Positions 28,668 through 58,737 are shown, counted from the first letter of the stretch. The stretch: DNA of 64,000 bases from Candidatus Binatia bacterium (GCA_963422385.1 OY729432.1:355376-419375); one strand, 5' to 3'. A program made the numbers and translations. The notes: generated by a model from the sequence alone, not told the origin.

Positions 28668-28909
28668 CACTCCGCCACGCCCTTGAACCCTGTCCGACCG
28701 GACGAACAGCCCCACTGTGTCCGTGCCGGACAGGTACGTTTTCTCATATACCTCACTATACCACAGGACCGGGTGTCCTGCGGAACGCATCGAAGCGCGA
28801 CCCGACCACCGTTGGACACCTGCTCCAAGCCCTCGGTCCTTACCCCATGGCCCATAGCCTGTTACCATGGTCTGTTACAATTCAACGCAGCTTCCGTTCC
28901 CACGCAATC

Positions 28910-36603: not shown

Positions 36604-37659
36604 ATGGCTTCTTTCGAGGTGAAGGTTTACCGGATTCAGGTCGAGGAACATCCGAATGCGGATGCCTTGGAGTTGGCTCGCGTCGGTGGGTACGTGAGTC
36701 TTGTCAGGAAGGAGTCTTTTTCGACGGGAGACCTGGCGGTTTACATTCCCGAGGCGTCCGTCGTTCCCGAGGATGTGATTCAGGAGCTTGGGCTTGAGGG
36801 CCGTCTTGCCGGGAAGGCGAAGAATCGGGTGAAAACGATCAGGCTTCGCGGCATCTTGTCCCAAGGCCTGATCTACCCCGTTACGGGGAACCGCCTTCGC
36901 GGGACTTCCGTGAACGAGGGCGACGATGTGATGGAGGCCCTTGGCGTGGAGAAGTGGGAGCCTCCGATCCCGGTCCATTTGTCCGGCAAGGTGCAGAATT
37001 CTCATGGGGCGACGCTTCATTTCGACATCGAGGACATCAAGAAGCATCCGGAGGTTTTCAAGGCCGGGGAAGAGGTGGAAGTCACCGAGAAGATTCACGG
37101 GACCTGGTGTTGTCTCGGTTGGAATCGGGAGCGTGGGCCGATCGTGACGTCGAAGGGGCTATCTTCCCAAGGGCTGTCCTTCAAGGTCGAGGACCCGGAC
37201 AATGCTGACAATCTGTATGTCCGGATGTGGAAGAAGTACGGCGACCTTGTGAAGCAGCGGGCGGAGCATTGCGGTCAGTCGGTGTATATCCTGGGGGAGA
37301 TCTTCGGACGTTCGGTTCAGGATCTTCGGTACGGCGAGAAGGCACAGGCTTTCGCCGTTTTTGACGTGTACGTCGGAGACCCCGGTTCCGGCAGGTATCT
37401 GACCCGCTCCGAGGTGTTGGAGTTTATTGGCGAGGATTTTCAGATGGTTCCGGTCCTGTACCGGGGTCCGTTTGACGAAAGTCTTCTTTCGGAGTGGACT
37501 TCCGGCAAGACCCTGTGGGGCGAGGGGGTTGACCAGATTCGAGAGGGGGTCGTGATTCGGGATTGCGCCGAAGGGTCGGAACTCGAGATTGGACGGCGCA
37601 TTCTCAAGAGCGTGGCCGAGGGTTATCTTCTTCGGAAGGGAGGAACGGAGTTCAATTAG
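36604..37659 (+). CDS. ATP-dependent RNA ligase, DRB0094/Rnl5-like (N-terminal tRNA-binding-type OB fold plus nucleotidyltransferase domain)
   Basis: The N-terminus VEEHPNADALELARVGGYVSLVRKESFSTGDLAVYIPEASVVP resembles the tRNA_bind OB fold. Candidate motif I is VTEKIHGT (adenylated Lys). Later blocks are YILGEIFG, AFAVFDVYV and EGVVIRD...RRILKSV. Third codon positions are visibly T-rich and less GC-biased than in neighbouring genes. Confidence 0.6.
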   Translation: MASFEVKVYRIQVEEHPNADALELARVGGYVSLVRKESFSTGDLAVYIPEASVVPEDVIQELGLEGRLAGKAKNRVKTIRLRGILSQGLIYPVTGNRLRGTSVNEGDDVMEALGVEKWEPPIPVHLSGKVQNSHGATLHFDIEDIKKHPEVFKAGEEVEVTEKIHGTWCCLGWNRERGPIVTSKGLSSQGLSFKVEDPDNADNLYVRMWKKYGDLVKQRAEHCGQSVYILGEIFGRSVQDLRYGEKAQAFAVFDVYVGDPGSGRYLTRSEVLEFIGEDFQMVPVLYRGPFDESLLSEWTSGKTLWGEGVDQIREGVVIRDCAEGSELEIGRRILKSVAEGYLLRKGGTEFN

Positions 37660-37678
37660 GACCGCGGCCGGTTCCTCT

Positions 37679-37717
37679 TATATGTGGGTAGAAATGCCGC
37701 TATAATACCCACATATA
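37679..37717. promoter_or_regulatory. AT-rich perfect 12-bp inverted repeat (TATATGTGGGTA-15 nt-TACCCACATATA) with TATAAT in the spacer
   Basis: Read directly. It lies 20 nt after the RNA ligase stop and 23 nt before the ATPase remnant, so it could be an operator, a terminator or an element boundary. Confidence 0.35.
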
Positions 37718-37739
37718 TCAACGAGCCCTCCTTTCCCGC

Positions 37740-38785
37740 TTGTCGGGAAAACGCCGGAGCGTTCTGCTCCTCGGCCCGCGACAGGTTGGAAAATCAACCC
37801 TGCTCGCGTCCCTCAAGCCCGACCTCTCCATCAACCTTGCGAGTCCGGCCGTCTTTCGCGACTATGTTGCGCAACCCGAACGGCTGGAGCTTGAACTGCG
37901 CGCGGCCGGCCCTCGCACCCGAACCATTCTGATCGACGAGGTGCAGCGGGTTCCAGCGCCAGAAAGCTCCATCGCGGGCAGGCCAATCTGCTACCCGGGC
38001 GGGTGCATCTGCACTATCTCCATCCGCTGCTCCAGCACGAACTGGACCGGGACTTCGATCTCCAGCGCGTGCTGGCCCATGGCAGCCTCCCGGGCGTCTA
38101 CGCCGAGCCGGATCAGGCAGCGCGCGATCAGGATTTGCGCGCCTACGTGGACGCCTACCTGCGCGAAGAAATCCAGGCGGAAGCGCTGGTACGCAATCTG
38201 GGGGGCTATGCCCGGCTGCTGGACCTGACGGCGGCGGCTTCGGGGACCATCCTCAACCTCAACGCCCTGAGCCAGGACGCCGGCATCGGCCACGAAACGG
38301 CACGGCGGTACCTGGAGGTTCTCGAAGACACGCTCATCGTGTTCCGTATCCCGGGCTGGAGCGGCTCGGATCGGGCCAGTCTGCTGAACCATCCGAAGAT
38401 TTTCTTCTTCGACGTTGGGGTGCGAAACGCGCTGTTGAGACGGCATCTCGATCGCATCCTCGAAGATGAACGGGGGCTCCTGTTGGAACATTTCATCGCC
38501 CAGGAATTGTACCGCCGGACGGGAACACTCTGGCCCGAACTTGCCCTGTCGCATTACCGGACCCGACATGGCGCGGAAGTCGACTTCGTCATGGAGGTCG
38601 GTCGGGAACTCTGGGCCGTCGAGGTCACGTCATCGCGGCGGGCATCCCGGAGCGCGTTGCGAGGATTGCGGTCTTTCGCCGAGAGGGCAGGCCGTGTCCA
38701 CCGTTCCATCGTGGTTTTTCCGGGACCGCGCAGACAGCGGTTGGAGGAGGTTGAGGTCCTGCCGGTGATGGACTTCCTGGGGTGA
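37740..38785 (+). pseudogene. AAA ATPase (AAA_14 plus DUF4143 family) disrupted by an internal out-of-frame deletion
   Basis: Frame 0 reads LLLGPRQVGKSTL...ILIDEVQRVP. The sequence then continues in another frame as SARKLHRGQANLLPGRVHLHYLHPL...DUF4143-like...EVDFVMEV. The ~25 residues normally between the Walker B/VQR block and the SARKL block are missing. Confidence 0.7.
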
Positions 38786-44927: not shown

Positions 44928-44956
44928 TTGACAGGGTATCGGGAACGGCCTAGGAT
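44928..44956 (+). promoter_or_regulatory. sigma70-like promoter for the amidohydrolase-GH84-senA-senB unit
   Basis: TTGACA-17 nt-TAGGAT about 70 nt upstream of the ATG at 45026, which has GGAGGAGGAAA as its RBS. Confidence 0.4.
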
Positions 44957-45025: not shown

Positions 45026-46150
45026 ATGGCCAAACAAGGATTCAAGGCAATGGATTCCGATATGCATGTCTTCGAGCCTGCCGACCTCTGGGAGCGCTAC
45101 ATCGACCCGGAGTTCAAGGACCGCGCTCCCAAGGGCCTGCAACGCGATTTCCGGGATCTCGGCGTCGAGCTCGACGGCAAGATCCTTCCCGTCCCGAGGC
45201 GGCCGGAAAACCCTGCCTTGAGGGACTACCGGCTGAATACTCTCAAGGAGAAATACAGCGACGTGGCCGAGCGCAACTTCGACGGCGTCAGCCAGGTCAT
45301 GGCCATGGAGAAGGAAGGCCTGGACGTGGCCTTTCTCTTTCCCACCCGCGGACTCTTCGTCCTCGGCATCGACGGCCTCGATCCCGAGTTGGCCGCGGCC
45401 ATCTCCCGGGCCTACAACGATTGGCTCCACGACTTCGCACAGGCCGCGCCCGACCGGATGATCTGCGTCGCCATGGTGCCGCCCCAGAACGTCGAGGCGG
45501 CGGTGGCCGAGACCAGGCGCACGGTGACCGAAAAGGGTTTCCGGGGCATCTTCATGCGCCCCAACCAGACCAACGGGCTATGCTGGAGCGATCCCTACTA
45601 CGATCCCCTGTGGGACGTCTGTCAAAGCCTGGACATCCCGGTGGGCTTCCACGAAGCGGGGCGGGTCTATCAGCCGCAGCCCGCCATCTCGCAGTTCATC
45701 CCGACCTTCTCCATGTTCAACACCCTGAGCTTTCCGATGGCCAACATGTTCGCCTGCTCGGACATGATCTACGGCGGCGTGATGGAGCGCTTCCCCAAGC
45801 TGCGCGTGGCCTTTCTGGAGGGGAACTGCTCCTGGCTGCCCTGGCTCCTGTGGCGCATGGGCGACTACATGGAGTCGGTGGGCAAGGCGGAGTACCCGGA
45901 CCTCAAGCTCGAGCCCCTGGAGTATTTCCAGCGCCAGTGCTTCGGCGCCGTCGAATGCGACGAGATCACCGCCAGGCACATGCCCGAGTACGGCCTGGAG
46001 GACAACCTGGTCTTCTCCACCGACTATCCGCACCTGGACGTCAAGTATCCTCACTCGCTGGATAGTTTCCTGGAGATGCCGTTCTCCGAAGAGTCCAAGC
46101 GGAAGTACCTCTGGGACAACTGCGCCAGGCTGTACAATCTCGGTCAGTAA
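45026..46150 (+). CDS. Amidohydrolase_2 (TIM-barrel metal-dependent hydrolase/decarboxylase) family protein
   Basis: MDSDMHVFEP (metal-binding D/H-x-H), GFHEAG, and the C-terminal VFSTDYPHLD. Confidence 0.8.
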   Translation: MAKQGFKAMDSDMHVFEPADLWERYIDPEFKDRAPKGLQRDFRDLGVELDGKILPVPRRPENPALRDYRLNTLKEKYSDVAERNFDGVSQVMAMEKEGLDVAFLFPTRGLFVLGIDGLDPELAAAISRAYNDWLHDFAQAAPDRMICVAMVPPQNVEAAVAETRRTVTEKGFRGIFMRPNQTNGLCWSDPYYDPLWDVCQSLDIPVGFHEAGRVYQPQPAISQFIPTFSMFNTLSFPMANMFACSDMIYGGVMERFPKLRVAFLEGNCSWLPWLLWRMGDYMESVGKAEYPDLKLEPLEYFQRQCFGAVECDEITARHMPEYGLEDNLVFSTDYPHLDVKYPHSLDSFLEMPFSEESKRKYLWDNCARLYNLGQ

Positions 46151-46163
46151 CAGCCCGGCCTCC

Positions 46164-47306
46164 ATGCGGACTTTCGAGCGGCGGGGGATCGTCGAAGGTT
46201 TCTTCGGTCCCCCGTGGAGCATGGGCCACCGCGCGGCCATGCTCGCGTTCGGCGCGCCGCGCGGCATGAACACCTATCTCTACGCGCCCAAGGACGATCC
46301 CTACCACCGCGAGCGCTGGCAACTGCCCTACCCCGAGCCGGAGTGGCGCGCGCTCTGCCGGCTCATCGACGCCGCGCGCGGGCACGGGATCGACTTCGTC
46401 TACGGCTTTCACCCCGGCAAGGACCTCTGCTTCGCCGCCACGGAACCGGTGCGGATCCTGCTCGACAAGGCCGCCCGGCTTCATGACCGGGGCGTGCGCA
46501 CCTTCGCCGTTCTGTTCGACGACATTCCCTCTCATCTCACGGACGCCGGTGACGTGAAAAAATTCGACGGTAGCCTGGCCAGGGCAGAGTCCCTCTGGCT
46601 CCAGGCCGTGCTGGAACGGCAGCCCGCCGGCTGGGAGGTGGAGTGGTGGTTCTGTCCCTCGTACTACACCGACGATCCGCTGCTGGCCCGGGTCTTCGGC
46701 GAATTCGAGCCGGAGTTCCCGGAGACCGTGGGCCGCCATTTGCCGCCGACCGTGGACTGTTTCTGGACCGGGCCCAAAGTCGTGCCCGAGAGCATCACCT
46801 TGGCCGACGTGGAGGACATCGGAGAACGGATGGGGCACCGGCTGCTCCTGTGGGACAACTATCCGGTCAACGACCTCACCATGCGGGACGAACTGCACAT
46901 CGGGCCCCTGACCGGGCGGGACCCGCGATTGCCGGAGCGCGTCCACGCGCACCTGGCCAACCCGCTGCTGCAGGAGGATCTCAGCTTCATCCCGTTGGCC
47001 ACCTGCTTCGACTACGCCCGTGACCCCGCGGGATACGACCCGGAAAAGAGCTGGGAGGAAATCGTGGTCCGGCGGTTCGGCGCGCCGGCGCTGGAGCATT
47101 GGCGGGCGCTCCGGCGATTTTGTGAAAGCGACGCGGACGCTCCGGCAACAGTATCGGTTCCGGAGCGCGCCGCGCTCCATGCCGCTTGTGACTATCTGCT
47201 GGCTCACCGGAGCGAACGGTGGTGCCGGGAATTCGGGCCATGGCAAGAAAGACTGGAGCAAGCGCTCCGGAAGGAACATGGAAGACAGAACCGTATCCAG
47301 TCGTGA
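46164..47306 (+). CDS. GH84 family beta-N-acetylglucosaminidase (O-GlcNAcase-like) catalytic domain protein
   Basis: GIVEGFFGPPWS...MNTYLYAPKDDPYHRERWQLPYP...IDFVYGFHPG...GVRTFAVLFDDIP...WDNYPVND. It matches the GH84 signature blocks, including the catalytic Asp-Asp pair. Confidence 0.8.
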   Translation: MRTFERRGIVEGFFGPPWSMGHRAAMLAFGAPRGMNTYLYAPKDDPYHRERWQLPYPEPEWRALCRLIDAARGHGIDFVYGFHPGKDLCFAATEPVRILLDKAARLHDRGVRTFAVLFDDIPSHLTDAGDVKKFDGSLARAESLWLQAVLERQPAGWEVEWWFCPSYYTDDPLLARVFGEFEPEFPETVGRHLPPTVDCFWTGPKVVPESITLADVEDIGERMGHRLLLWDNYPVNDLTMRDELHIGPLTGRDPRLPERVHAHLANPLLQEDLSFIPLATCFDYARDPAGYDPEKSWEEIVVRRFGAPALEHWRALRRFCESDADAPATVSVPERAALHAACDYLLAHRSERWCREFGPWQERLEQALRKEHGRQNRIQS

Positions 47307-48606
47307 GGTAATGGCAACGCTGGACGAAGTCCGTTCCAGGACCCTGGGCCTGGTGCAGGATCTTTCCGACGAGCAGCTCACCGTGCCCATGCTGAACATC
47401 GTCAACCCGCCGCTCTGGGAGATCGGGCACATTGCCTGGTTTCACGAGCGATGGGCGCTGCGGCATCTGCGCGGCCACGACCCCATCATCGACAAGGGTG
47501 ACGAAATGTACGACTCCGCCGCCGTGCACCATGACACCCGGTGGGTCCTGGGGTTGCCGCCGCTGGAAGAAACCCTCGCCTACATGGAGCGCGTCCTCCA
47601 GCGCATCGCCGGGGAACTGCCCGCCGGGCGACTGAGCCCGGAAGAGACCTATTTCCACAAGCTGGGCATCTATCACGAGGACATGCACGCGGAGGCCATG
47701 ACCTATACCCGTCAGACCCTCGGTTACCCCCGGCCCCGTTTCGCCGGCGAGAGGACGGCGTTGAACGGAGGACCCTGTCCGGGCGACGTGGAGGTCCCCG
47801 GCGGCGAGTTCCTTCTCGGCGCCACCCCGGACCTCCCCTTTGTCTTCGACAACGAAAAATGGGGCCACCCGGTGATGGTGGCGCCCTACCGTATCGCCCG
47901 CACCCCGGTGACGAATGCCGAGTTCGCCGGGTTCTTGGACGACGGTGGCTACGAGGATCCAAGGTGGTGGAGCGACGACGGCTGGAACTGGCGGCAGACC
48001 GGCGGGGGACCGCATCCCGTGTACTGGAAACGGGAGTCCGGGGGACGGTGGCTGGAACGGACCTTTGGCCAATGGCTGCCGCTTCACGCCGAGCTCCCGA
48101 TCATCCACGTCAACTGGCATGAGGCCGAGGCTTACTGCCGTTGGGCCGGGCGCCGGCTGCCGACGGAGGCCGAATGGGAGATGGCGGCGGCCGTAGATCC
48201 CGCTGACGGCTCGAAGGCCGAGGCTCCCAAGCGCGGCTATCCCTGGGGCGACGCGCCCCCGGACCCCTCCAACGGCAACCTCGACTGGGCCGCGGGCGGC
48301 CGGGTGCCCGTGGACGCGCTTCCGGCGGGCGATAGCGCCGTTGGCTGCCGCCAGATGATCGGCAACATCTGGGAATGGACGGCCGACGCCTTCGGCCCCT
48401 ACCCCGGTTTCGTCCGGGACCCCTACAAGGAGTATTCGGAGCCCTGGTTCGGCGACCGCAAGGTGCTGCGCGGCGGATGCTGGGCCACCCGCTCCCATTT
48501 GATCCGGAACACGTGGCGGAACTTCTTTACGCCGGAGCGGCGGGACGTGCTCGCCGGTTTTCGCACGTGTGACCGGGAATGGACGGCAAGGAAGACCGGC
48601 GCATGA
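47278..48606 (+). CDS. senA: EgtB/SenA-type nonheme-iron C-S/C-Se bond-forming enzyme (DinB_2 plus FGE-sulfatase domains); candidate selenoneine synthase
   Basis: NPPLWEIGHIAWF and YHEDMHAEA form a 3-His iron site. The FGE-like C-domain reads YRIARTPVTNAEF...HVNWHEAEAYCRWAGRRLPTEAEWE...GNIWEWT...VLRGGCWAT. The SenA call rests on adjacency to the SenB-like gene. The start may instead be ATG 47311. Confidence 0.6.
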   Translation: MEDRTVSSREVMATLDEVRSRTLGLVQDLSDEQLTVPMLNIVNPPLWEIGHIAWFHERWALRHLRGHDPIIDKGDEMYDSAAVHHDTRWVLGLPPLEETLAYMERVLQRIAGELPAGRLSPEETYFHKLGIYHEDMHAEAMTYTRQTLGYPRPRFAGERTALNGGPCPGDVEVPGGEFLLGATPDLPFVFDNEKWGHPVMVAPYRIARTPVTNAEFAGFLDDGGYEDPRWWSDDGWNWRQTGGGPHPVYWKRESGGRWLERTFGQWLPLHAELPIIHVNWHEAEAYCRWAGRRLPTEAEWEMAAAVDPADGSKAEAPKRGYPWGDAPPDPSNGNLDWAAGGRVPVDALPAGDSAVGCRQMIGNIWEWTADAFGPYPGFVRDPYKEYSEPWFGDRKVLRGGCWATRSHLIRNTWRNFFTPERRDVLAGFRTCDREWTARKTGA

Positions 48607-48659
48607 GTACACGTACCTGTGAGGCGCGACGCTGGGCAAACGGCGTCCTTCGACCGCGC

Positions 48660-48699
48660 CTCGCTACGCTGCCCCGAGCCCGTCGAGAAGCGTAGCGAG
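48660..48699 (+). other. perfect 11-bp stem hairpin in the senA-senB spacer
   Basis: CTCGCTACGCT-18 nt-AGCGTAGCGAG, with no downstream U-tract. Confidence 0.5.
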
Positions 48700-48721
48700 C
48701 ACAGTTCAGGTCAACGCCGGA

Positions 48722-49714
48722 TTGGAAGAGGCATTGGCACAAGAGAACACCGGAACCGCCAGAATCGCCCTCGTAACCCCGGCCGGCCCCACGCGACGTA
48801 CGGGCAACCGCATCTCGGGAGGCAGGTGGGCGCGAATCCTGCGGGCCTCGGGACATCGGGTCACGGCCCTGGACCGCTACGAGCGCGAGCGCTGCGACCT
48901 GCTGATTGCGCTCCACGCGCGACGCAGCCATCCGTCCATCCAGCGGTTCCGCCGGTTGCACCCCGACAAGCCGCTGGTCGTGGTGTTGACCGGGACCGAC
49001 CTGTACCGCGACATCCACGTGGACGAGGACGCCCGGGAATCCCTGCAACTGGCCACCCGTCTGGTGGTGCTCCAACGCAAGGGCCTGGACGAGCTCGCTC
49101 CCGCGCTACACGAGAAGACACGGGTGATCTACCAGTCCGCATCCCCCTCCCTCGGCCGCCCCGGCGACCGTCACCGGCAATTCACCGTTGCGACGGTGGG
49201 CCACATGCGCTCCGAGAAGGACCCGTTCCGGACCGCCATGGCCGTGCGGTCCTTGCCGTCCTCGTCGCGGCTCCGGGTCGTGCACATCGGCGCGACTTTG
49301 AGCGAGGGCATGGCCACACGCACGGAGCGGGAGATGGAACGCAATCCCCGTTACCGGTGGCTGGGTGAACTTCCCCACTGGAAGACACGGCAACTCATGG
49401 CCCGCAGCCACATCCTTTCCATCACCTCACGCATGGAGGGCAGCTCCAATGTCTTGTGTGAGGCGTTGGCCTCCGGTGTCCCCGTGGCGGCCTCCAGAAT
49501 CTCCGGGTTGGTAGGCACCCTGGGCAACGACTATCCCGGCTACTTCGACCTCGGCGACACCGCCGGGCTCAAGCGTCTCCTGGTCCGGGCCGAGAACGAC
49601 CTGCCGTTCTACGAGAGTCTGGCCCGGCACTGTGCCGAGGTCGCGCCGCTGGTGAACCCTGAACGGGAGGTCCGGGCGTGGGAGGATCTTGTCCGCGAAT
49701 CCATGGGATCATAG
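48722..49714 (+). CDS. senB: SenB-like glycosyltransferase (TIGR04348-type); candidate selenosugar synthase
   Basis: RIALVTPAGPTRRTGNRISGGRWARILRASGHRV...DLLIALHARRSHPSIQRF...LVVVLTGTDLYRDI...LVVLQRKGL...TRVIYQSA...RMEGSSNVLCEALASGVPV. I recognise this as the EgtB-homologue-linked GT family. The start codon is uncertain (TTG 48722 or 48734). Confidence 0.55.
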   Translation: MEEALAQENTGTARIALVTPAGPTRRTGNRISGGRWARILRASGHRVTALDRYERERCDLLIALHARRSHPSIQRFRRLHPDKPLVVVLTGTDLYRDIHVDEDARESLQLATRLVVLQRKGLDELAPALHEKTRVIYQSASPSLGRPGDRHRQFTVATVGHMRSEKDPFRTAMAVRSLPSSSRLRVVHIGATLSEGMATRTEREMERNPRYRWLGELPHWKTRQLMARSHILSITSRMEGSSNVLCEALASGVPVAASRISGLVGTLGNDYPGYFDLGDTAGLKRLLVRAENDLPFYESLARHCAEVAPLVNPEREVRAWEDLVRESMGS

Positions 49715-49738
49715 GACACTACGCTGACACCACACTAG
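49712..49738. repeat. stop-to-stop spacer made of MITE-terminus-like motifs (TAGGACACTACGCTGACACCACACTAG)
   Basis: The TAG at 49712-49714 is the senB stop. The complement of 49735-49737 is the stop of the aminotransferase gene. GACACCACACTAG equals the element terminus. Confidence 0.6.
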
Positions 49739-50886
49739 GTCTCGTCGGAAAGGACCTCGATGAGCTTCTCCGCCACCGTATCCAGCTCCGCGTGACTGAT
49801 GACCAGGGGCGGCAGCAGCCGGACCACCGTCGCTCCCGCGGGTAGCGCCAGGACCCCCTTCTCCATGAGGCGCACGAGGTGGGGCTGGGACTTTTCCTTG
49901 AGCTCGATGCCGATCATCAGGCCGAGTTGACGTATGTCCCTGACCTTGGGCAGTTCCGCCGCCTTCAGACGCTCCATCAGACAGGCACCCTTCTCCGCGG
50001 CGGCCTCGGCCAACCGTTCCTCCATCATGGCGTCGATGGCGGCCAGCGACGCGGCGCACGCCAGCGGGTTGCCGCCGAAGGTGCTGCCGTGCCGGCCCAC
50101 GGGGACCTCGATCCCGTCGGAGCAGACCACCGCGCCCATGGGGATTCCGCCGGCCATGGACTTGGCCAGGCACAGGATATCGGGCTCCAGGCCGAAGTGC
50201 TCGCAGGCGAACATCTTCCCGGTGCGGCAGAAGCCGGTCTGGACCTCGTCGATGATGAGGAGGATCCCCCTCTCCCGGCACAGCTCGCTCACCTGCGCGA
50301 AGAACTCGGCCTTGCCGAGGTTCACGCCGCCTTCGCCCTGGACGATCTCGAGCATGATCGCAGCGGTGTCGTCGCCCACCTTCTCCGCCAGCTTGGCGAA
50401 GTTGTTGAACGGCGCGAACCGGAAGCCCTCTACGACGGGCGCGAAGGGCTCCCGATACTCCCGGGTGAAGGTGGCGCTCAACGCCCCCATGGTGCGGCCG
50501 TGAAAGCCGCGCATGGCGCACACCAGCTCCTGCTTGCCGGTGGTGAAGCGGGCGAACTTGATGGCCGCCTCGATGGTCTCGGCGCCGGAGTTGCACAGGA
50601 ACGCGCGGGTGAGGTTCCCGGGGGTGATGCCGGCCAAACGCTCCAGCAGCCGCGCCTTGACGTCGTTGTAGAAGACCCCGGAGCAACTCAACAAGCGCTG
50701 CGCCTGCTCGGCCACCGCTTGCACCACCTTGGGGTGGCAATGGCCCAGGTTGGCGACGCCGTGGCCGGCCACGCAATCGATGTACTCCCGGCCGGTATCG
50801 TCCCACACCCTGGCGCCCTCGCCGCGCACCAGCACCACGTCGCGCTTGGGATAGACATCGAACTCGTACTGCCGCTGCAGCTTCAT
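49735..50886 (-). CDS. lysJ: acetylornithine / [LysW]-aminoadipate-semialdehyde aminotransferase (ArgD/LysJ family, class III)
   Basis: VWDDTGREYIDCVAGHGVANLGHCHP...LIIDEVQTGFCRTGKMFA...LCLAKSMAGGIPMG. Start at ATG 50886; the 683-aa track ORF is an artefactual extension across lysZ. Confidence 0.85.
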   Translation of the reverse strand: MKLQRQYEFDVYPKRDVVLVRGEGARVWDDTGREYIDCVAGHGVANLGHCHPKVVQAVAEQAQRLLSCSGVFYNDVKARLLERLAGITPGNLTRAFLCNSGAETIEAAIKFARFTTGKQELVCAMRGFHGRTMGALSATFTREYREPFAPVVEGFRFAPFNNFAKLAEKVGDDTAAIMLEIVQGEGGVNLGKAEFFAQVSELCRERGILLIIDEVQTGFCRTGKMFACEHFGLEPDILCLAKSMAGGIPMGAVVCSDGIEVPVGRHGSTFGGNPLACAASLAAIDAMMEERLAEAAAEKGACLMERLKAAELPKVRDIRQLGLMIGIELKEKSQPHLVRLMEKGVLALPAGATVVRLLPPLVISHAELDTVAEKLIEVLSDET

Positions 50887-50894
50887 GAAGTCCG

Positions 50895-51686
50895 TCACCG
50901 AATCACCGTTCCTTTCCCCGCCAGGGCATCGCGGACCGGATGCTCCACCCGGCCGTCGCTCATGACGACCTTTTCCGTGCCTTCCTCGAAGAGCCGTCGC
51001 AGCGCCAGCATCTTGCGCTTCATGCGCCCCTCCACCTCGGCCTCCCGCTGCTCCAACTCGGCGGCGCGGATTCGGGGCACCACCGTGCTCTCGTCGTCCT
51101 TGTCGGCGAGGAAGCCGGGCGCCTCGATGAGCTGCAGCACCAGCTCGGCGTGAAAGGCGGCCTGGAGCACGTTGACGATGTCGTCGTTCTCCGAGTTGAT
51201 GGCGGTGTGGCGCTCGTCGATGATGGGGATGGAGAGCACCGGCGCGTAGCCGCCGTCGAGCAGCAACTGGAACAGCTCCTTGTTGGCCTTCCCGGGCTTG
51301 CCCGAGAAGTCCCGGACGATGAGGGTCTTGCCGTTCTTCCTCACCCGGATGCCCTTGTTGCGCCGTCCCTGGATCGCCCGGCCGTCGATGCCCGAGAGGC
51401 CCACGGCGTTGACGCCGTTCTGTTGCAGCAGCTCCACGATGCGCTTGTTCTGCACGCCCGCGTAGCCCATCAGGATGGCGTCCAGGGCGGCCTTGTCCGA
51501 CAGCACGCTGGTGTAACCCGACACCGATGTGACCACCTGGGTGGGGGTGCCGAGCCTGGCCGCGATGGCGTCGCGCACTGCGTTGGCGCCATGGACCACG
51601 ATGAACGGGTCCGACAGCGCCGCCAGGTCCTCGGCGATACCCGGGAGGTTGATGTCGCTGCCACCGCCGATCTTCACCAGGATCAT
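50895..51686 (-). CDS. lysZ: [LysW]-aminoadipate / acetylglutamate kinase
   Basis: MILVKIGGG...FIVVHGANAV... is the amino acid kinase fold of the ArgB/LysZ type. The ATG overlaps the stop of the upstream gene (ATGA). Confidence 0.8.
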   Translation of the reverse strand: MILVKIGGGSDINLPGIAEDLAALSDPFIVVHGANAVRDAIAARLGTPTQVVTSVSGYTSVLSDKAALDAILMGYAGVQNKRIVELLQQNGVNAVGLSGIDGRAIQGRRNKGIRVRKNGKTLIVRDFSGKPGKANKELFQLLLDGGYAPVLSIPIIDERHTAINSENDDIVNVLQAAFHAELVLQLIEAPGFLADKDDESTVVPRIRAAELEQREAEVEGRMKRKMLALRRLFEEGTEKVVMSDGRVEHPVRDALAGKGTVIR

Positions 51687-52321
51687 CGAAGCCGCTCCAC
51701 CGTGTCGTTGGGAATCGTGCGCCACTCCCCGTGCTCCGGCACGGTCTCGGAACTGACGGTGAACCCGTCGCTGCTCTCCCGGGCACGAAGCCTGAAATAC
51801 GCCGGGTCCTCGTTGAAGACCGACCCGACGTAGACGTTTTCCCTGTCGGCGATGATCATGTTCATGGCTCGCACGTAGCGCGTCCTTCGGACGATGATGT
51901 CCATCCCTTTTCGGATGGCCGCGGCCATGTCGCCCTTGTCGAAGCGCTTGATGTAGTTGAACACCTTCTCCGCGCCGATGCGGCCCTCCGCGGTGACGCG
52001 AACTCCCCGGAGCTCGCCGTTGAAGGCGAACACGTAGCGGTCGTCGGAAAACGGCATGTTGTTCTCCACCACGATGTTCTCATCGCGGAACGCGCTGCGC
52101 GCGTGAGCCACCAGCAGCGTCGTCGCGCCGAACTGTCCCAGGTCGTCTTCCCATACCGGCTTGATGTTCCGGTACACCTTCCACTCACCGTCCACCAGAT
52201 AGGCGCAGCCCCAGCCGTGGCCCTGGTACTCCGGGCTGTTCCGGGCGACGTCGGCCAGATGTGACAAGCGTTGGCCGATATCGAACGGTTGCTGATTCTT
52301 GACGCACAGCAAGCGGCACAT
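51683..52321 (-). CDS. class II glutamine amidotransferase-like Ntn hydrolase (YafJ/EgtC-like), stand-alone
   Basis: 212 aa starting MCRLLCV (Cys2 nucleophile after Met removal), then GHGWGCAY...LVAHARSAF...NNMPF...FAFNGEL. No synthase domain is fused. Confidence 0.7.
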   Translation of the reverse strand: MCRLLCVKNQQPFDIGQRLSHLADVARNSPEYQGHGWGCAYLVDGEWKVYRNIKPVWEDDLGQFGATTLLVAHARSAFRDENIVVENNMPFSDDRYVFAFNGELRGVRVTAEGRIGAEKVFNYIKRFDKGDMAAAIRKGMDIIVRRTRYVRAMNMIIADRENVYVGSVFNEDPAYFRLRARESSDGFTVSSETVPEHGEWRTIPNDTVERLR

Positions 52322-52341
52322 GGCGACGATACCGAAAGGCT

Positions 52342-53394
52342 CTACGCGCCCGGGTGCAGTCCCGGGAATTCGAGGCCCAGGGTCTCCTCGAAGCCGTTCA
52401 TGACGTTGAACGCCTGGACCGCCTGTCCCGAGGCGCCCTTCACGAGATTGTCCAGCGCACTGAGCACCACCAGACGATCGGAGTCCTTCTCCTTCTGGAA
52501 GCCGATGTCGCAGTAGTTGGTGCCGCTGAGCAGCTTGGGCTCGGGAAACCGGTAGATGCCGTCGGCCTCCTTGACGATACGGATGAACGGCTCTTTGCCG
52601 TAGGCCTCGCGGTAGATCTTCCACACGTCCTTCTCTTCCAGCGGCTCGCGCAGGAAGAGGTGGGCGGTGGCCAGCACGCCGCGCACCATCTCGATGGAGG
52701 TGGCGGAAAAATACACACGGATCTGCCGGCCGAAGCCCAGCTCCTGCACGATCTCCGCGCCGTGGCGATGCAAGGTGGGCATGAACGAGCGTACGGCGCC
52801 GCTGCGCTCCGGGTGATGAGAGGCGTCGCTGGCGGCGTTGCCGCCTTCGCTGGAGCCCACCTTGACCTCCACCACCGTGCGGTCCGGGTCCACCAGTCCT
52901 TTCTTGAAGAAGGGATAGACGCCGAGAATCGTCGCGGTGGCGTTGCACCCGGCGCCGGTGACGAAGCTTGCACCTCGTATCTCCTCCCGATGCAACTCGG
53001 GGATGCCGTACACGAAATCCTTCATCAGCTCCGGCCGCGCGTGCGGCTTGCCGTACCAGCGCTGGTACTCGTCCGGATCATCGAGCCGGAAGTCCGCGCT
53101 CAGGTCGATAAGCTTCGGCGCCAGCCCGCGGAGGGACTCGATGCGCTCCATCGCCTGGCCGTGAGGCAGGCAGAGAAAGAGAACGTCGCACGGCTTCAAC
53201 TCCTCCATCCGGCAGAACCGGAGCTGCGTCCGCCTGCGCAGATTGGGATGGGCCTTGAACACGAACTTCCCCGTGTAGCGCTCCGAGGTAACCTCGCACA
53301 ACTCCACCCCGGGATGCCACAGAAGCAGGCGCAGGAGCTCGCCGCCGGTGTAGCCGGACGCCCCCACGATGGAGACCTTCAGCTTCTCGGTCAC
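52342..53394 (-). CDS. lysY: [LysW]-aminoadipate 6-phosphate / N-acetyl-gamma-glutamyl-phosphate reductase
   Basis: VSIVGASGYTGGELLRLL...VTGAGCNATA (active-site Cys)...LVKGASGQAVQAFN. GTG start at 53394. Confidence 0.88.
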   Translation of the reverse strand: MTEKLKVSIVGASGYTGGELLRLLLWHPGVELCEVTSERYTGKFVFKAHPNLRRRTQLRFCRMEELKPCDVLFLCLPHGQAMERIESLRGLAPKLIDLSADFRLDDPDEYQRWYGKPHARPELMKDFVYGIPELHREEIRGASFVTGAGCNATATILGVYPFFKKGLVDPDRTVVEVKVGSSEGGNAASDASHHPERSGAVRSFMPTLHRHGAEIVQELGFGRQIRVYFSATSIEMVRGVLATAHLFLREPLEEKDVWKIYREAYGKEPFIRIVKEADGIYRFPEPKLLSGTNYCDIGFQKEKDSDRLVVLSALDNLVKGASGQAVQAFNVMNGFEETLGLEFPGLHPGA

Positions 53395-53451
53395 GGCTTG
53401 TGCCTCCCCTTCCCGTCCAGGTCGATGATCCGGGTCACGTCCGCCGGCCCC

Positions 53452-54324
53452 TCAGGCCGCACCCTTCCGTTCCCGTTCCGCCCGCCCCACCCGAAGCACA
53501 TGCTCGACGATCAGGCCGGGGATGTTCACCCCGGTGGTGTCGATGCTGTTCCGGAACTCCATGGTGTAGTTCACCTCGTTGACCAGCAGGCCCTCGGGGG
53601 TCTCGAAAAGGTCCACGGCGACGATGCCGCCTCCCACCGCGCGGCACGCCCGGACCGAGAGGTCCCGAAGCTCGTCCGTCACCGGACAGTTCCCGGCGCG
53701 CCCGCCCCGGGCCGTGTTGGTGATCCAGTGGTCGCTGTAACGGTAGATGGCGGCCACGCATTCGTCACCGATGACGAAGCTCCGGATGTCGCGCCCGGTC
53801 TTCTCGACGTATTGCTGAATGTAGAAGATGGAGTGGTGGTAGGAGCCGAGGATCGCCTTGTGCTCCAGGATCGACTCCGCCGCGTCCCGATCGTTGATCC
53901 TGGCGAGGAGCCGGCCCCAGGAGCCCACGGCGGGCTTGAGCACCACGGGATAGCCCATCTCCTCGATGGCCTCCAGGGTGGATTCCTCGGTAAAGGCGAT
54001 GCGCACCTCGGGCTGGGGCACCCCACCATCCTGCAACTGCACCGAGGTGAGGATCTTGTCGCCGCACACGCCTGCCACCGACGACGAGTTGACGCAGCGC
54101 ACGCCGGCGCTTTCGAACAGCCGCAGACCGTGCAGCGCCCGGGAGTGATTGATGCACCGCTCCAGCAGCACGTCCAGGTCGTATCGGTCCTTGCCCAGGT
54201 TGAACGACAATCGCCGGTCGTCGATCATCCGGAGCTCCACGCCGGGCCGTTGCCTGATCTCCTTGATCAGGAGCTTCTCCTCGGGCCGGACCAGTGAATG
54301 CAGCAAACCGATCTTCAAGCTCAT
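53452..54324 (-). CDS. lysX: RimK/LysX-type ATP-grasp ligase (alpha-aminoadipate--LysW ligase)
   Basis: [20 protein letters not shown]...[11 protein letters not shown]...[19 protein letters not shown]. The ATG overlaps the lysW stop (ATGA). Confidence 0.85.
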
Positions 54325-54596: not shown

Positions 54597-55985
54597 TTAT
54601 GGCAGTACGGCTTGCGCGACCGTGGTGACGGCGTTCCGCAAGATTGTAACGATGCCGTCGATCTGTTCTTTCGTGACCACCAGCGGCGGACACACGGCCA
54701 GCGCGTGGGCGCCGCACACGCGCAGCAGCAGTCCGTTGGCCAGGCACTCGTCGCAGACCCGCCGGGGCACCTGCTGCTCCGGATCAAAGGACTCCCGGGT
54801 CTCCTTGTCCTTCACCAGCTCCACCGCGGCGATGAGCCCCCGGCCGCGCACCTGACCCACCATGGGCAGGTCCGACAGCGTTGCCAGCCGCTCCTGCATG
54901 TAGGCGCCCAACTCCGCCGCCCGCTCCACCAGATGCTCCCGCTCGATGATGTCGAGGTTGGCCAGCGCCGCGGCGCACACCACCGGATGTCCGGTGTAGG
55001 TGTAGCCGTGGTAGAACGCGTCGTCCGCCTTGGCCAGCAGGGTCTGGAAGATCTCTTCCCGGAACAGCATCGCGCCCAGCGGCAGGTAGCCGCTGGTGAT
55101 GCCCTTGGCGGTGACCAGCACGTCCGGGGTCACGTTCTCGCCGGCGCACGCGAACAGGGCGCCGGTGCGCCCGAACCCCGTGATCACCTCGTCGCAGACC
55201 ATCAGGATACCATACCGGGTACAGATCTCCCGAATCCTGGCCAGCCATCCCTCGGGCGGCACGATGACCCCGCCAACGCCCTGGACGGGCTCGGCCACGA
55301 AGGCCGCGACGGCGTCCGGACCTTCCCGTTCCACCAGCTGCTCCAGCTCGTCGGCGCAGGCGATGTTGCAGCTCGGCCAGGTCTTCCCCAGCTCGCAACG
55401 ATAGCAGTGAGGCCGCGCCATGTGGTGCACGTCCGGCAGACCCGGCTCCATCTGCCGGTTGAACAGCGGTATCCCCGTCAGCATGGCCGCCCCGCTGGAA
55501 GAGCCGTGATAGCCCTGGTTCAGGGTGACGAACCGGGTCCGTTGCGGCTGCCCCCTGGCTTTCCAATAAGCCCGCACCAAGCGGATCATGCTCTCGTTGG
55601 TCTCGGAACCGCCGGAGGTGAACACCACGCGGGTCAGCCCTTCCGGGGACATCTCCGCGAGCCGGGACGCCAGCCGGATGGTGGGTTCGGCCGTGGGCCC
55701 GATGAGCGTGGGCGCGTAGGCGAGCCGGTCCATCTGCTCCGCCACCGCACGGGTGATCTCCTTCCGCCCGTGGCCGACGTGGACGTTCCAGAGAGTGGAG
55801 AGGCCGTCGATGTAGCGCTTGCCCAGGGAGTCCCAGAGGTAGACCCCCTCGGCCCGGACGAACACCGGCACGCCGTCCGCCTGATGCTTTGTCAACGGCA
55901 CGAAGCCGTGGACGAGATGGTCCCGGTCGGCGCGGCTCATGGCCGCGGCGCGCTCGAGATCCACGGGGTCGGAAGGGTTCGTCAT
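54597..55985 (-). CDS. class III (omega-type) aminotransferase
   Basis: LWNVHVGHGRKEI...GGSETNE...MVCDEVITGFGRTGALFA...VTAKGITSGYLPLGA. Start at ATG 55985 (MTNPSDP). Confidence 0.85.
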   Translation of the reverse strand: MTNPSDPVDLERAAAMSRADRDHLVHGFVPLTKHQADGVPVFVRAEGVYLWDSLGKRYIDGLSTLWNVHVGHGRKEITRAVAEQMDRLAYAPTLIGPTAEPTIRLASRLAEMSPEGLTRVVFTSGGSETNESMIRLVRAYWKARGQPQRTRFVTLNQGYHGSSSGAAMLTGIPLFNRQMEPGLPDVHHMARPHCYRCELGKTWPSCNIACADELEQLVEREGPDAVAAFVAEPVQGVGGVIVPPEGWLARIREICTRYGILMVCDEVITGFGRTGALFACAGENVTPDVLVTAKGITSGYLPLGAMLFREEIFQTLLAKADDAFYHGYTYTGHPVVCAAALANLDIIEREHLVERAAELGAYMQERLATLSDLPMVGQVRGRGLIAAVELVKDKETRESFDPEQQVPRRVCDECLANGLLLRVCGAHALAVCPPLVVTKEQIDGIVTILRNAVTTVAQAVLP

Positions 55986-56052
55986 GGGTTCCGGCGAGTG
56001 TCCGCGGCAGGGCCTCGGGGCCCTTGGCCCTGCCGTGTCCGTCGTCTTGGGC

Positions 56053-57084
56053 TTACAGCCCGTAATAGCGCCTGGGGTTATCGCACAGGATCTTCCTGCG
56101 CAGCTCGGGGTTGAGGTCCTCCCGGGCAAAAAAGTCCGGCAGATCGTGGAAGAACTCCGAGCGCGCCCGCTCGTGGGGGTAGTCGGAGGCCCACAGCACC
56201 TGATCCCCGCCCAGACGTTCCAGCACGTAGGGCAGGCTCTTCTCGTCCACCTCGCAGGTGAAGAAAATGTTGCCGCCACGGATGATGTCGCTGGGGCGCT
56301 GCTTGACCGCCAGCGCGTGGCCGCGCCGCTCCCAGTTCTCGTCCAGCGCGTCCATCATGAACGGCACCCAGCCGGTGCCGCACTCCAGATAGGCCACCCG
56401 AAGGTTGGGAAAACGGTCGAACACGCCGCTGTTGATCATGCTCATGATCTGTACCATCTGCGGCATGGCGTGCTCCAGCGGTCGCGCCTCGGCCAGACTC
56501 TCGAACATGTCCAGGCCCAGGCCCGTTACCGGACCGCCGTGAACCGCCAACGGGCAATCCAACCGTTCCGCCTCCGCGTAGAGCGGGTCGAACTGGCCGC
56601 CGCCCAGGCCCACCAGCGGCGCCATCACCGACGGGATCACGCCGGCCACCATGCCCTGCTCCTCCACGCACCGGCGCAACTCCTGGACCGCGGCGTCGAT
56701 GTCCTGCACCGGCAGCAGCGCCACGCCCTTGAGGCGGTCCGACTGGCGCCCGAAAGAGTCGTAAAGCCAGTCGTTGTACGCCTGAGCCACGGCCACCGCC
56801 CAGCCCTTGTTCCTGATCTGGCCGTGAAACAGCGCGTTGCTGGGATAGAGGATCGTCTGGTCGATCTTCGAGTCGTCGAGGAAGCTCAGCCAGTTGGCCG
56901 CGTCCGGGACCTCGGCCTTGTGGCGGGACGACATGCCGCGCATCCAGCCGTCAGTGAGGGGAAAGAGATAATACTCACGGGTCCAGTCCTTGTCGGACCA
57001 GGGCGCGGGCAGATACCGACGCAGGTCCTTGTCCTGGTCCACCACGTGGCCGTCCGCGTCAATAATCTCGTGTTCATGTTCCAT
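56053..57084 (-). CDS. Amidohydrolase_2 family protein (paralogue of 45026-46150)
   Basis: IIDADGHVV (metal site)...LAVHGG...LWASDYPHE. ATG 57084 is preceded by GGAGG. Confidence 0.8.
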   Translation of the reverse strand: MEHEHEIIDADGHVVDQDKDLRRYLPAPWSDKDWTREYYLFPLTDGWMRGMSSRHKAEVPDAANWLSFLDDSKIDQTILYPSNALFHGQIRNKGWAVAVAQAYNDWLYDSFGRQSDRLKGVALLPVQDIDAAVQELRRCVEEQGMVAGVIPSVMAPLVGLGGGQFDPLYAEAERLDCPLAVHGGPVTGLGLDMFESLAEARPLEHAMPQMVQIMSMINSGVFDRFPNLRVAYLECGTGWVPFMMDALDENWERRGHALAVKQRPSDIIRGGNIFFTCEVDEKSLPYVLERLGGDQVLWASDYPHERARSEFFHDLPDFFAREDLNPELRRKILCDNPRRYYGL

Positions 57085-57136
57085 GGAAACCTCCAACGTC
57101 CGGAAATCCGATACGCGCACGCGAGGGGCCCGCTCG

Positions 57137-58606
57137 TCAGCGTATCATCAGCCGGCCGGATTCGCCCGAATAGTTGATAAAGACGGTCTTGAGCTCGGTA
57201 AAGAAATTGACGCCCTCCTCGGACATTTCCCGCTCCCCTACCCCGGTGGCCTTGATGCCGCCGAAGGGAAGCTGGGCCTCACCGCCGATGGTGGGCTCGT
57301 TCACGTGGACCATGCCCGTCTCCACGTCCTCCACGAAGCGCATCACCTTGTCCACGTCCCGGGTGAAGATGGACGTGGTGAGGCCGAAGTCCACCGAGTT
57401 GGCGAACCGGATGGCTTCGTCCAGGTCCGAGGCCGCAGCCACCGACAGCACCGGGCCGAAGATCTCCTCGCGAAAGATGCGCATGTCCGGTGTGACGTTG
57501 TCGAACACCGTGGGCTCGACGTAATACCCGTGTTCCAGCCCCGCGGGCTGGTTCCCGCCCACCACCAGGCGGGCGCCCTCCTGCTTGCCCACTTCGATGT
57601 ACTCCAGGTCGGTCTTCCACTGGCTCTCGTCCACCGCCGGCCCCATGTCCACGTCCCGGTCGAGGCCCGGGCCCACGCGCATCTTTCGGGCGTGTTCCTC
57701 CAGCCTGGCCACCAGCTCGTCCTTCGTGGAGCCGATGGCGATGACCCGGGAGGTGGCGGTGCAGCGCTGGCCGGTGGAGCCGAAGGCGCCGTCCCGTATG
57801 GCCACGGCCGCCTTCTCGAGGTCGCAGTCGGGCATCACGATGACCGCGTTCTTGCCGCCCATCTCGCAGGTCACCTTGGCGCCCCGGGAGGCGGCCTTGA
57901 CGTAGAGGTCGCTGCCGATCTCGTTGGACCCGGTAAACGAGACCACCGGGATCCGTGCGGACCTGACCATGGTTTCGCCGACCTCGGACCCGGAGCCGAC
58001 GATGACGTTGAAGACGCCCTTGGGAAGACCGGCTTCCTCGTATACTTCCGCCAGGAGACCCGCAGTAGCCGGGGTCAGGGACGCCGGCTTGAGCAGTACC
58101 GCGTTGCCGGCCACCAGCGCCGGCGCGGACTTCCACACCGGGATCGCCCAGGGAAAGTTCCACGGCGCGATCAGCCCCACCACGCCCATGGGCTGCCGGA
58201 TGGTGTAGGTGAAAGTGTCCCGGGCCTCGGACGGAAGAGTCTTGCCGCCGAGCCGGTAGCCGGCGCCGGCGTTGTACTCCAGGAGCGAGATCCCCTTGAG
58301 CACCTCGCCCCGCGCCTCCTTGAAGATCTTCCCTTCTTCGCGCGTCATGACCTCGGCGATCTCGTCCACACGACGGCGCGCGATGTCCGCGGCGCGCCAG
58401 ATCACCCGACCGCGCTCCGGCCCCGGCGTCTTCCTCCATCCCTGGAAGGCGGCCGCGGCCGCATCGATGGCCCGCTCCGTGTCCGCGCCCGTGGCCATGG
58501 GAAACTCGGCGATGACGTCGCGGGTGTCCGCGGGATTGACGTTGCGTACCTGCCGGCCGGAGCTCGGCTGGACCCACTCCCCGTTGATATACGAACCGGT
58601 CTGCAT
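57137..58606 (-). CDS. NAD(P)-dependent aldehyde dehydrogenase
   Basis: SFTGSNEIG...[13 protein letters not shown] (catalytic Glu)...GQRCTATSR (catalytic Cys). ATG 58606 is preceded by AAGGAG. Confidence 0.9.
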
Positions 58607-58651
58607 GGGTGTCTCCTTGGAGCTGGTATCGTGGGTCGCCAATGGATCGGG

Positions 58652-58678
58652 CAGGGGCGGGCTTGAAACCCGCCCCTG
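58652..58678. repeat. REP-like GC hairpin (CAGGGGCGGG-CTTGAAA-CCCGCCCCTG)
   Basis: 10-bp perfect stem located in the divergent aldH/rnhA intergenic region. Confidence 0.7.
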
Positions 58679-58737
58679 CACCTTGTCGTCGCACCCGGGA
58701 GCCTGTCCGACGGCAAGCATTCCCGCACCGCTTCATG

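Follow-up and report, generated by a model that had tools for sequence, protein, structure and literature searches.

A three-enzyme reconstitution of selenoneine biosynthesis was published in 2022, and in it loss of the N-acetylglucosamine (GlcNAc) carrier was assigned to spontaneous chemistry (Kayrouz et al., 10.1101/2022.04.13.486033). Why, then, should a glycosidase gene stand directly ahead of the genes for the selenoxide synthase SenA and the selenosugar synthase SenB in Candidatus Binatia? We addressed this question for four plus-strand genes at positions 45026-49714 of a 64,000-nucleotide stretch of DNA from a Candidatus Binatia bacterium (GCA_963422385.1 OY729432.1:355376-419375; hereafter the window), the analysis of this genome covering that stretch. 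What is new is a conserved GH84 subfamily tied to senA/senB, together with a wider accessory gene set; the core enzymes were already known. We tentatively interpret the window as holding a Binatia-type selenoneine locus with a dedicated cytoplasmic GH84 enzyme that handles the GlcNAc carrier, most likely via hydrolysis of a selenoether, an interpretation that we regard as possible though somewhat short of probable.

The GH84 gene and its linkage to senA and senB

Families were assigned by Pfam and NCBIfam profile searches of the open reading frame (ORF) translations with curated cut-offs. The glycosidase gene (46164-47306, + strand; 380 amino acids) encodes a clear GH84 β-N-acetylglucosaminidase catalytic domain (PF07555, 271 bits), as an earlier note made from the DNA sequence had proposed, and the Asp-Asp pair to which that note pointed aligns as D119-D120. 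The catalytic pair as well as K43, Y168, N232, D237 and N266 are invariant across the subfamily and align to the K218, D297/D298, Y335, N396 and D401 motifs of C. perfringens NagJ (CpNagJ), and the best sequence match in the PDB is the O-GlcNAcase (OGA) of T. terrenum (5diy, 208 bits). As homology begins at residue 2 and leaves no room for a signal peptide, the enzyme is predicted to be cytoplasmic. Its relatives form a very large family of single-domain proteins of about 380 amino acids; the subfamily itself is discrete, its members being at least 52% identical to one another and no other GH84 recovered exceeding 42%. The NCBIfam GlcNAcase equivalog NF041654 gives 188.6 bits against a cut-off of 1000, matching profile positions 144-423 of 732. 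An AlphaFold model built from a 14-sequence alignment reached a moderate pLDDT of 71.8, and in Foldseek its top matches were all GH84 (TM-score about 0.62), T. terrenum OGA first. The model thus confirmed the fold but not the intact -1 GlcNAc pocket for which the earlier note had proposed it, the active-site loops at residues 231-241 and 251-269 having pLDDT values below 50. Judged by its sequence, the enzyme is predicted to be intact and catalytically competent.

The gene that follows (47278-48606, + strand; 442 amino acids from its ATG) encodes a protein with DinB_2 and FGE-sulfatase domains in Pfam that scores 518.9 bits with the SenA model NF041186 (curated cut-off 420), whereas the EgtB model TIGR03440 stays under its own cut-off (346 bits against 360) and the OvoA N-terminal model gives 152 bits. 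Its WEIGHIAW and YHEDMHAE motifs align with the His ligands of OvsA, Variovorax paradoxus SenA (VpSenA) and MthEgtB. Asn and Glu occupy the positions of MthEgtB S43 and D48, His that of R87 and Phe417 that of D416, while TRW (R90) is kept; such substitutions at the thiol-binding residues of EgtB have been reported to set SenA apart from EgtB (Kayrouz et al. 2022, 10.1101/2022.04.13.486033). Among PDB chains the protein scores higher with OvsA (345 bits) than with VpSenA (272) or MthEgtB (255). An identity as OvsA is nevertheless rejected, because the top chain is an engineered "YNF" variant of OvsA, the wild type having M/Q/A there, and because the window protein carries the hercynine motif Y386/N415/F416 in the alignment. 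On the curated cut-off and the signature residues we assign the third gene to SenA, in line with its earlier placement as a SenA of the EgtB family.

The fourth gene (48722-49714, + strand; 330 amino acids, GT-B fold) scores 395.8 bits with the SenB model TIGR04348, for which the curated cut-off is 300 and the next family reaches 109 bits, so that the alternative of a generic glycosyltransferase, raised along with the first proposal of SenB, was not borne out. SenB structures in the PDB match at about 210 bits. All residues of the selenophosphate pocket and the proposed Se-P-cleaving Lys are kept in the alignment: N29, H65, R68, T90, T92 and D93 correspond to VpSenB N20, H58, R61, T83, T85 and D86, and R163, K166 and E239 to R155, K158 and E231, E247 being invariant in the family. 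Differences from VpSenB are seen at the sugar contacts (T23 to S32, V157 to E165, EGGAHV to EGSSNV). Since the consensus across 70 diverse SenBs reads EGGANV, the beta-proteobacterial EGGAHV motif is not universal. Cut-off and catalytic and pocket residues together identify the gene as a predicted senB.

The linkage of these genes was surveyed from both sides. For SenB, 150 representatives at 40-55% identity were collected and a 14-sequence alignment was scanned against one genome per species, which yielded 80 species-level loci from at least 10 phyla; the genes around them were counted by tblastn. Thirteen Binatia-type loci were informative, three more being truncated upstream and not counted, and GH84 lies beside senA/senB in 11 of the 13 against 0/64 loci from other phyla. 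Six of the positive loci belong to the window's clade (L009-L013, L065), among them the best genomic match, L009 (OZ243984.1, uncultured Candidatus Binatia bacterium), in which all four genes recur with proteins 86-98% identical to those of the window; five are deeper Binatia-type loci (L014, L016, L017, L020, L021), and L019 and L031 are without GH84. Reciprocally, a GH84 alignment scanned against metagenome contigs returned 80 loci of two kinds, distant GH84s with 31-42% identity and a close clade for which the figure is mostly 56-71%. In 16/20 informative close-clade loci senA, with senB where the contig reaches, lies directly downstream on the same strand, the remainder being one locus with a divergent senB and three negatives, as against 0/24 informative distant loci with senA/senB (Fisher p ~1e-8, a value which, like the other Fisher p-value given below, ignores shared ancestry, every positive locus coming from one lineage).

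Five GH84 relatives on long contigs show how this arrangement varies. The locus of L001 (GH84 85% identical) is syntenic with the window; L003/L004 (59%) and L005/L006 (62%) have GH84-SenA-SenB in a different neighborhood with EgtD about 3 kb upstream, SenA and SenB of L003 scoring 497.6 and 397.7 bits, both over their cut-offs; in L007/L008 (62%) GH84 is followed directly by SenB, and in L002 (66%) it stands alone. Order, strand and adjacency of GH84-senA-senB are kept in proteins diverged to about 52-60% amino-acid identity, whereas the flanks are entirely different: resistance-nodulation-division (RND) efflux and lysine genes in the window give way elsewhere to EgtD, LysE, a short FGE-like gene and an AmpG-like major facilitator superfamily (MFS) permease. 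Such persistence is better explained by selection on the linkage than by inertia alone. GH84 is a genuine, recurrent and conserved partner of senA/senB within Binatia; the neighborhood survey that the earlier note had called for shows that the link is not unique to this genome. As far as the openly searchable full-text literature goes (subscription-only sources excluded), which includes the sen and ovs papers, no glycoside hydrolase is described in these clusters, in agreement with the claim that a GH84 enzyme had not been reported from sen or egt clusters.

Possible substrates of the glycosidase

The GH84 enzyme had been proposed as exactly the chemistry needed to remove the sugar, a view that does not agree with the published pathway. 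The product of SenA is hercynyl-SeGlcNAc selenoxide, which gives selenoneine by spontaneous elimination, and in the presence of dithiothreitol (DTT) the reduced hercynyl-SeGlcNAc selenoether was also detected in vitro (Kayrouz et al. 2022, 10.1101/2022.04.13.486033). Because the selenoxide loses its sugar spontaneously, a glycosidase is not required for the core chemistry, and we suggest that it acts on the reduced product instead. We rely on this published work for what SenA and SenB catalyze, for the spontaneous elimination and for the reduced shunt product, and the substrate and reaction of GH84 are what we infer. Selenophosphate would be supplied by a SelD encoded elsewhere in the genome, and SenA would oxidatively couple SeGlcNAc to hercynine, made by the EgtD-like enzyme encoded 13 kb upstream, to form hercynyl-SeGlcNAc selenoxide. 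Thiols would reduce part of this selenoxide to the selenoether, which would thereby escape spontaneous elimination, and GH84 would hydrolyze the β-Se-GlcNAc bond of the selenoether by substrate assistance, releasing selenoneine and free GlcNAc; such a step would rescue a dead-end shunt and recycle the sugar carrier. GH84 enzymes reportedly (work of Macauley from 2005) cleave activated thioglycosides, those with good leaving groups, without acid catalysis, and selenoneine should likewise be a good leaving group.

Several observations weigh against cleavage of the selenoether. The three-enzyme pathway gives selenoneine in vitro without a glycosidase (Kayrouz et al. 2022, 10.1101/2022.04.13.486033), and as the sen loci of all other sampled phyla are without GH84, the enzyme is not essential. 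Human OGA (hOGA) leaves alkyl S-GlcNAc on cysteine uncleaved, so that any activity of GH84 on a Se-glycoside hinges on the quality of the leaving group. By tblastn with three SenC/SelD probes, obtained via unbiased clustering of the ORFs in SenB neighborhoods, senC/selD was found neither in the window nor in any Binatia-type locus. Part of the linkage signal is inherited synteny, the positives being confined to Binatia, and the close-clade GH84s of L002, L106, L107 and L111 have no senA/senB in the sequence fetched. Finally, L007/L008, L169 and L104 keep GH84 beside senB without a full-length senA, which points to the product of SenB rather than that of SenA as the substrate.

These last two sets of loci each lead to a different explanation. 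The GH84s standing without sen genes would fit a housekeeping enzyme that removes O-GlcNAc from proteins, as in Thermobaculum, or frees GlcNAc from muropeptides that the AmpG-like permease brings in, its adjacency to sen being inherited Binatia synteny that at most feeds the uridine diphosphate (UDP)-GlcNAc pool. The T. terrenum O-GlcNAc hydrolase as best solved relative, the restriction of the linkage to one lineage and the frequent presence of an AmpG-family-like MFS gene convergent on senB (TIGR00901, 254 bits, below the cut-off of 350) all agree with such a role. It is harder to reconcile with the turnover of the flanks around a GH84-senA/senB order that persists to the identities given above, with the absence of any such linkage from the 24 informative distant GH84 loci, or with the fact that either of GH84 and the MFS can be absent while the other stays with senA/senB (the window's clade being without the MFS, and L019 and L031 without GH84), and we consider it unlikely, if not negligibly so.

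The senB-only loci, in L104 with senB divergent from GH84, would be explained if GH84 split the SenB product into GlcNAc and selenide by hydrolysis, acting on free SeGlcNAc, on its diselenide or on other adducts, as a safety valve or recycling route for a reactive selenosugar pool that is independent of SenA. An ovsA mutant accumulates SeGlcNAc in vivo, which is hence a real intracellular species. Such an activity would, however, set up a futile cycle with SenB; most loci have senA, not senB, directly after GH84, and senA is possibly encoded elsewhere in the exceptional genomes. We therefore regard hydrolysis of the SenB product as distinctly unlikely.

A third possibility concerns the sugar that leaves the selenoxide. 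From the published mechanism, an internal (Cope-type) or β elimination, a 1,2-unsaturated sugar would be expected, and GH84 might hydrate this by-product of syn-elimination, 2-acetamido-D-glucal, to GlcNAc, salvaging a dead-end enamide sugar. Substrate-assisted β-N-acetylhexosaminidases of family GH20 are said to hydrate 2-acetamidoglucal (work of Lai and Withers, in Biochemistry in 1994); to our knowledge, glycal hydration has not been reported for GH84. The sugar by-product goes unnamed in the accessible text of the sen papers, and the GH84-senB pairs without senA would be left unexplained, which makes the proposal quite improbable.

The remaining alternatives involve sulfur. Thioglucose is a very poor substrate of SenA, and a stable sulfoxide accumulates from it with no ergothioneine formed (Kayrouz et al. 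2022, 10.1101/2022.04.13.486033), so that a sulfur version of the pathway would need a cleavage enzyme. It is conceivable, at a very low probability, that enzymatic removal of the GlcNAc carrier lets the cluster use sulfur too, in a GlcNAc-carrier ergothioneine or mixed sulfur and selenium route with no clustered SelD, in which GH84 would be an obligatory thio- or seleno-glycosidase, with a GlcNAc-conjugated intermediate perhaps transported by the AmpG-like permease. Least probable of all is a cluster using sulfur, or either chalcogen, in which a thio-GlcNAc donor would lead to a hercynyl-S-GlcNAc sulfoxide incapable of spontaneous elimination, a new route to ergothioneine that would depend on GH84 for release: the stable sulfoxide would agree with it, as would the adjacency of SelD in 0/31 Binatia-type against 11/64 other SenB loci (p = 0.014, shared ancestry ignored) and its absence from the 64 kb, but the selenophosphate pocket and Se-P-cleaving Lys of SenB are fully conserved, SenA scores as SenA and not as EgtB, thioglucose is so poor a substrate, selD is mostly encoded outside the sen locus whatever the phylum (only 11/80 SenB loci overall have a SelD within 10 kb), and we know of no biological thiophosphate donor.

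Operon structure, supply genes and the wider gene set

In this genome the four genes plausibly form a single operon. The plus-strand ORFs, with their coordinates and spacings (a 13-nt gap, a 29-nt overlap and a 115-nt gap), were all reproduced from the translations, which also contain the motifs quoted previously (GFFGPPWS, YAPKDDPYH and FAVLFDDIP in GH84, H...HxxxH in SenA). All four ORFs have the bias in third-position guanine-cytosine content (GC3) typical of the window's coding sequence, the base composition of the window being 62-67% GC, and the open frame of senA begins at 47020, ahead of its ATG at 47278. A single transcription unit fits with the predicted sigma-70-like promoter ahead of the block (TTGACA-17-TAGGAT, 44928-44956, + strand), a consensus match only, with 10/12 consensus positions and one site found against 0.3 expected in shuffles, and with a scan that detected no credible terminator inside the block; a ribosome-binding site, GGAGGAGG, precedes the ATG at 45026. 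The senA-senB spacer contains a perfect 10-bp inverted repeat at 48660-48699 (CTCGCTACGC ... GCGTAGCGAG) with a 20-nt loop and no T tract. The tblastn matches of senA and senB in L011 are only about 10 nt apart, which suggests that the spacer is not conserved.

The first gene of the block (45026-46150, + strand; 374 amino acids) encodes a metal-dependent TIM-barrel enzyme of the Amidohydro_2 family (PF04909, 120 bits against a gathering cut-off of 26.4), for which the NCBIfam scan gave no match. It had been put forward as an accessory of the cluster acting on the released sugar or an intermediate, a proposal that found little support. Its closest solved relative is PtmU3 (115 bits), followed by DitZ, LigW, the decarboxylases of gamma-resorcylate, 2,3-dihydroxybenzoic acid (2,3-DHBA) and ACMSD type, and the hydratase LigJ, and neither Pfam nor NCBIfam revealed homology to NagA-type (Amidohydro_1) or other sugar deacetylases. 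The gene lies beside GH84 only in the window, in the other members of its shallow clade (L001, L009-L013, L065; 90-98% identity) and in L169 (84% identity; arranged as Amidohydro_2-GH84-SenB with no SenA); it is missing from at least 25 other GH84-sen clusters. In the metagenome-assembled genome (MAG) GCA_050735075.1, which holds the GH84-SenA-SenB genes of L014, a 77%-identical homolog sits on another contig between an epimerase-family gene and an FAD oxidoreductase, and a 67%-identical homolog is likewise found in an unrelated context. On account of the non-sugar relatives and the restricted, movable context, a role in processing the released sugar was rejected. The gene is probably co-transcribed here and is most likely a lineage-specific passenger, its membership in the pathway being doubtful.

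Upstream of the block, on the minus strand, are genes for a membrane-fusion protein, an RND pump and CinA. Downstream, a lysine (or arginine) biosynthesis cluster of the LysW/α-aminoadipate (AAA) type (49735-54324, - strand) comprises a class-III aminotransferase (LysJ/ArgD-like), a LysZ-like amino-acid kinase, a LysY-like semialdehyde dehydrogenase and a RimK/LysX ATP-grasp protein, to which the syntenic L001 adds a LysW zinc-ribbon gene. It is followed at 54597-58720 (- strand) by another class-III aminotransferase, a second Amidohydro_2 paralog (56053-57120, - strand; 29% identical to the sen-adjacent one) and an aldehyde dehydrogenase, genes which may form a separate catabolic module. At 36604-38785 the window holds an RNA ligase (PF09414 with a PHA02142 OB domain) and a 260-amino-acid DUF4143 fragment. 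A full AAA_14/DUF4143 ATPase lies just 5' of the cluster in L001 and 5' of the lone GH84 in L002, so that this element may be a rearrangement marker.

Hercynine is probably supplied by an EgtD-like histidine Nα-trimethyltransferase encoded outside the operon at 31049-32113 (+ strand); it scores 287 bits, just under the TIGR03438 cut-off of 290.9, and shares 53% identity with the EgtD that L003 encodes upstream of GH84. Its gene is placed on the plus strand between those for a TPR/lytic-transglycosylase protein (28847-30988) and a GlpC-like Fe-S oxidoreductase (32008-33435), the latter ORF overlapping its end, and EgtB, EgtC and EgtE were found neither near it nor elsewhere in the window. With regard to selenium, the earlier designation as a selenoneine-type locus holds for senA and senB but not for the defining third gene, senC/selD, which is absent from the 64 kb. 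As senC is not co-localized, the locus falls outside the three-gene senABC cluster as defined, though it is a member of the SenA/SenB system. The selD context labeled "Deltaproteobacteria" (L173-L175) was considered as a source of the Binatia SelD and is not assignable to Binatia.

Clusters outside the window's clade are usually richer, adding EgtD, a LysE-family exporter and a fatty-acid desaturase. Beside EgtD, an ATP-binding cassette (ABC) system is composed of a fused permease/OpuAC-binding protein and a ProV-like ATPase (L003:4053-6376, L005, L091, L093, L094, L109, L119), with weaker relatives in the non-Binatia sen loci L027, L035, L036, L039 and L055; we take its architecture to resemble that of the ergothioneine importer EgtUV. 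Most Binatia-type loci also encode, divergently from GH84, a short FGE-sulfatase protein of about 275 amino acids with a signal-like hydrophobic N-terminus and no DinB iron domain (L003:9088-9924, - strand; equivalents in L007, L089, L091, L094, L097, L100, L108, L109, L116, L119, L120, L125 and L169). These two features make it an unlikely cytoplasmic selenoxide synthase, and a replacement of SenA by this protein in L007-type loci was accordingly rejected. Between GH84 and senA or just upstream are an alpha/beta-hydrolase of about 275 amino acids (L016:7544-8362), in at least 15 loci and still beside senA in L019 and L031, both without GH84, and a two-domain VOC/glyoxalase-like protein (L016:6712-7518) in 7 loci; both are candidates for further accessory genes. 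The window itself has no ABC transporter of this kind, LysE, desaturase, short FGE protein, alpha/beta-hydrolase, VOC protein or AmpG-like MFS.

SenB is also found apart from SenA. In L104 (4684-10528), where senB is divergent from GH84 and senA is missing, an ArsR-rhodanese fusion adjoins, and the neighborhood includes a fatty-acid hydroxylase and a CobW-type GTPase. SenB homologs of about 51% identity with no SenA within 10 kb occur in L050, L051, L053, L054, L072, L073, L074, L080 and L088, from genomes of Hydrogenophilales/Nitrosomonadales type; several lie among genes for CTP synthase, a DAHP/KDO8P-synthase-family protein and RNase HII, and senB of L054 (Sulfuricella) stands alone among housekeeping genes. 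These loci may reflect SenB-only use of the selenosugar or simply dispersed genes. In a Thiobacillus MAG, SenB is fused to SelD (L080:10001-12030), and SenB representatives of about 650 amino acids (P0129, P0138, P0180, P0241, P0261) may be similar fusions.

Implications and comparison with known systems

The lineage-wide synteny of GH84 may mean that in thiol-rich cells the sugar carrier is removed or recycled enzymatically, or that the selenosugar pool is policed. If true, this first dedicated Se-glycosidase would account for the way in which cells avoid a dead-end hercynyl-SeGlcNAc selenoether and would offer a handle for higher selenoneine titers in engineered hosts. The Binatia-type gene set (EgtD, the betaine-type ABC system, LysE, the AmpG-like MFS, the alpha/beta-hydrolase and the VOC protein) provides candidates for the transport and tailoring of selenoneine and hercynine. 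Binatia are abundant in soils, and the pathway may therefore be a quantitatively important environmental route to organic selenium.

The closest known system is senABC of Variovorax paradoxus (10.1101/2022.04.13.486033), with which the locus shares SenA and SenB orthologs with catalytic and pocket residues, the order senA then senB on one strand and, as in a subset of the published clusters, a gene for EgtD, here an EgtD-like one, in the neighborhood. It differs in that the window is without senC/selD and has an additional GH84 upstream of senA, plus Amidohydro_2 in this clade, while sister clades have an alpha/beta-hydrolase, a VOC protein, the short exported FGE-like protein, LysE, a ProV/OpuAC-type ABC system and an AmpG-like MFS; in the pathway as published, no enzyme takes off the sugar. 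The ovs cluster for ovoselenol (OvsA and OvsM with senB/senC; PMC11030361) uses the same SeGlcNAc donor cassette, but the window enzyme has Y/N/F where wild-type OvsA has M/Q/A, an OvsM-type methyltransferase is absent and an EgtD-like gene is present.

Compared with the GH84 O-GlcNAcases (T. terrenum OGA 5DIY, C. perfringens NagJ, B. thetaiotaomicron BT_4395 and human OGA), the window protein retains the TIM-barrel catalytic domain, the Asp-Asp pair, the -1 subsite residues and the C-terminal helical bundle. Unlike them, it is only about 380 amino acids long, without carbohydrate-binding, N-terminal or HAT-like domains, and members of its subfamily are encoded beside senA/senB and not beside O-GlcNAc transferase (OGT) or glycan-degradation genes. 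Most Binatia-type loci also recall AmpG-NagZ muropeptide recycling in pairing an AmpG-like permease with a cytoplasmic β-N-acetylglucosaminidase. In this case, however, the glycosidase is a GH84 and not a GH3 NagZ, the two genes are split by senA-senB and lie on opposite strands, and the window has no such permease.

A functional parallel is offered by egtABCDE, in which an EgtB-family iron enzyme likewise couples a chalcogen donor to hercynine and the carrier is then removed. There, this removal is carried out by EgtC and the C-S lyase EgtE, of which GH84 would be the analog here, acting on a sugar carrier and not a cysteinyl peptide, and through hydrolysis of a glycoside in place of a pyridoxal phosphate (PLP)-dependent lyase.

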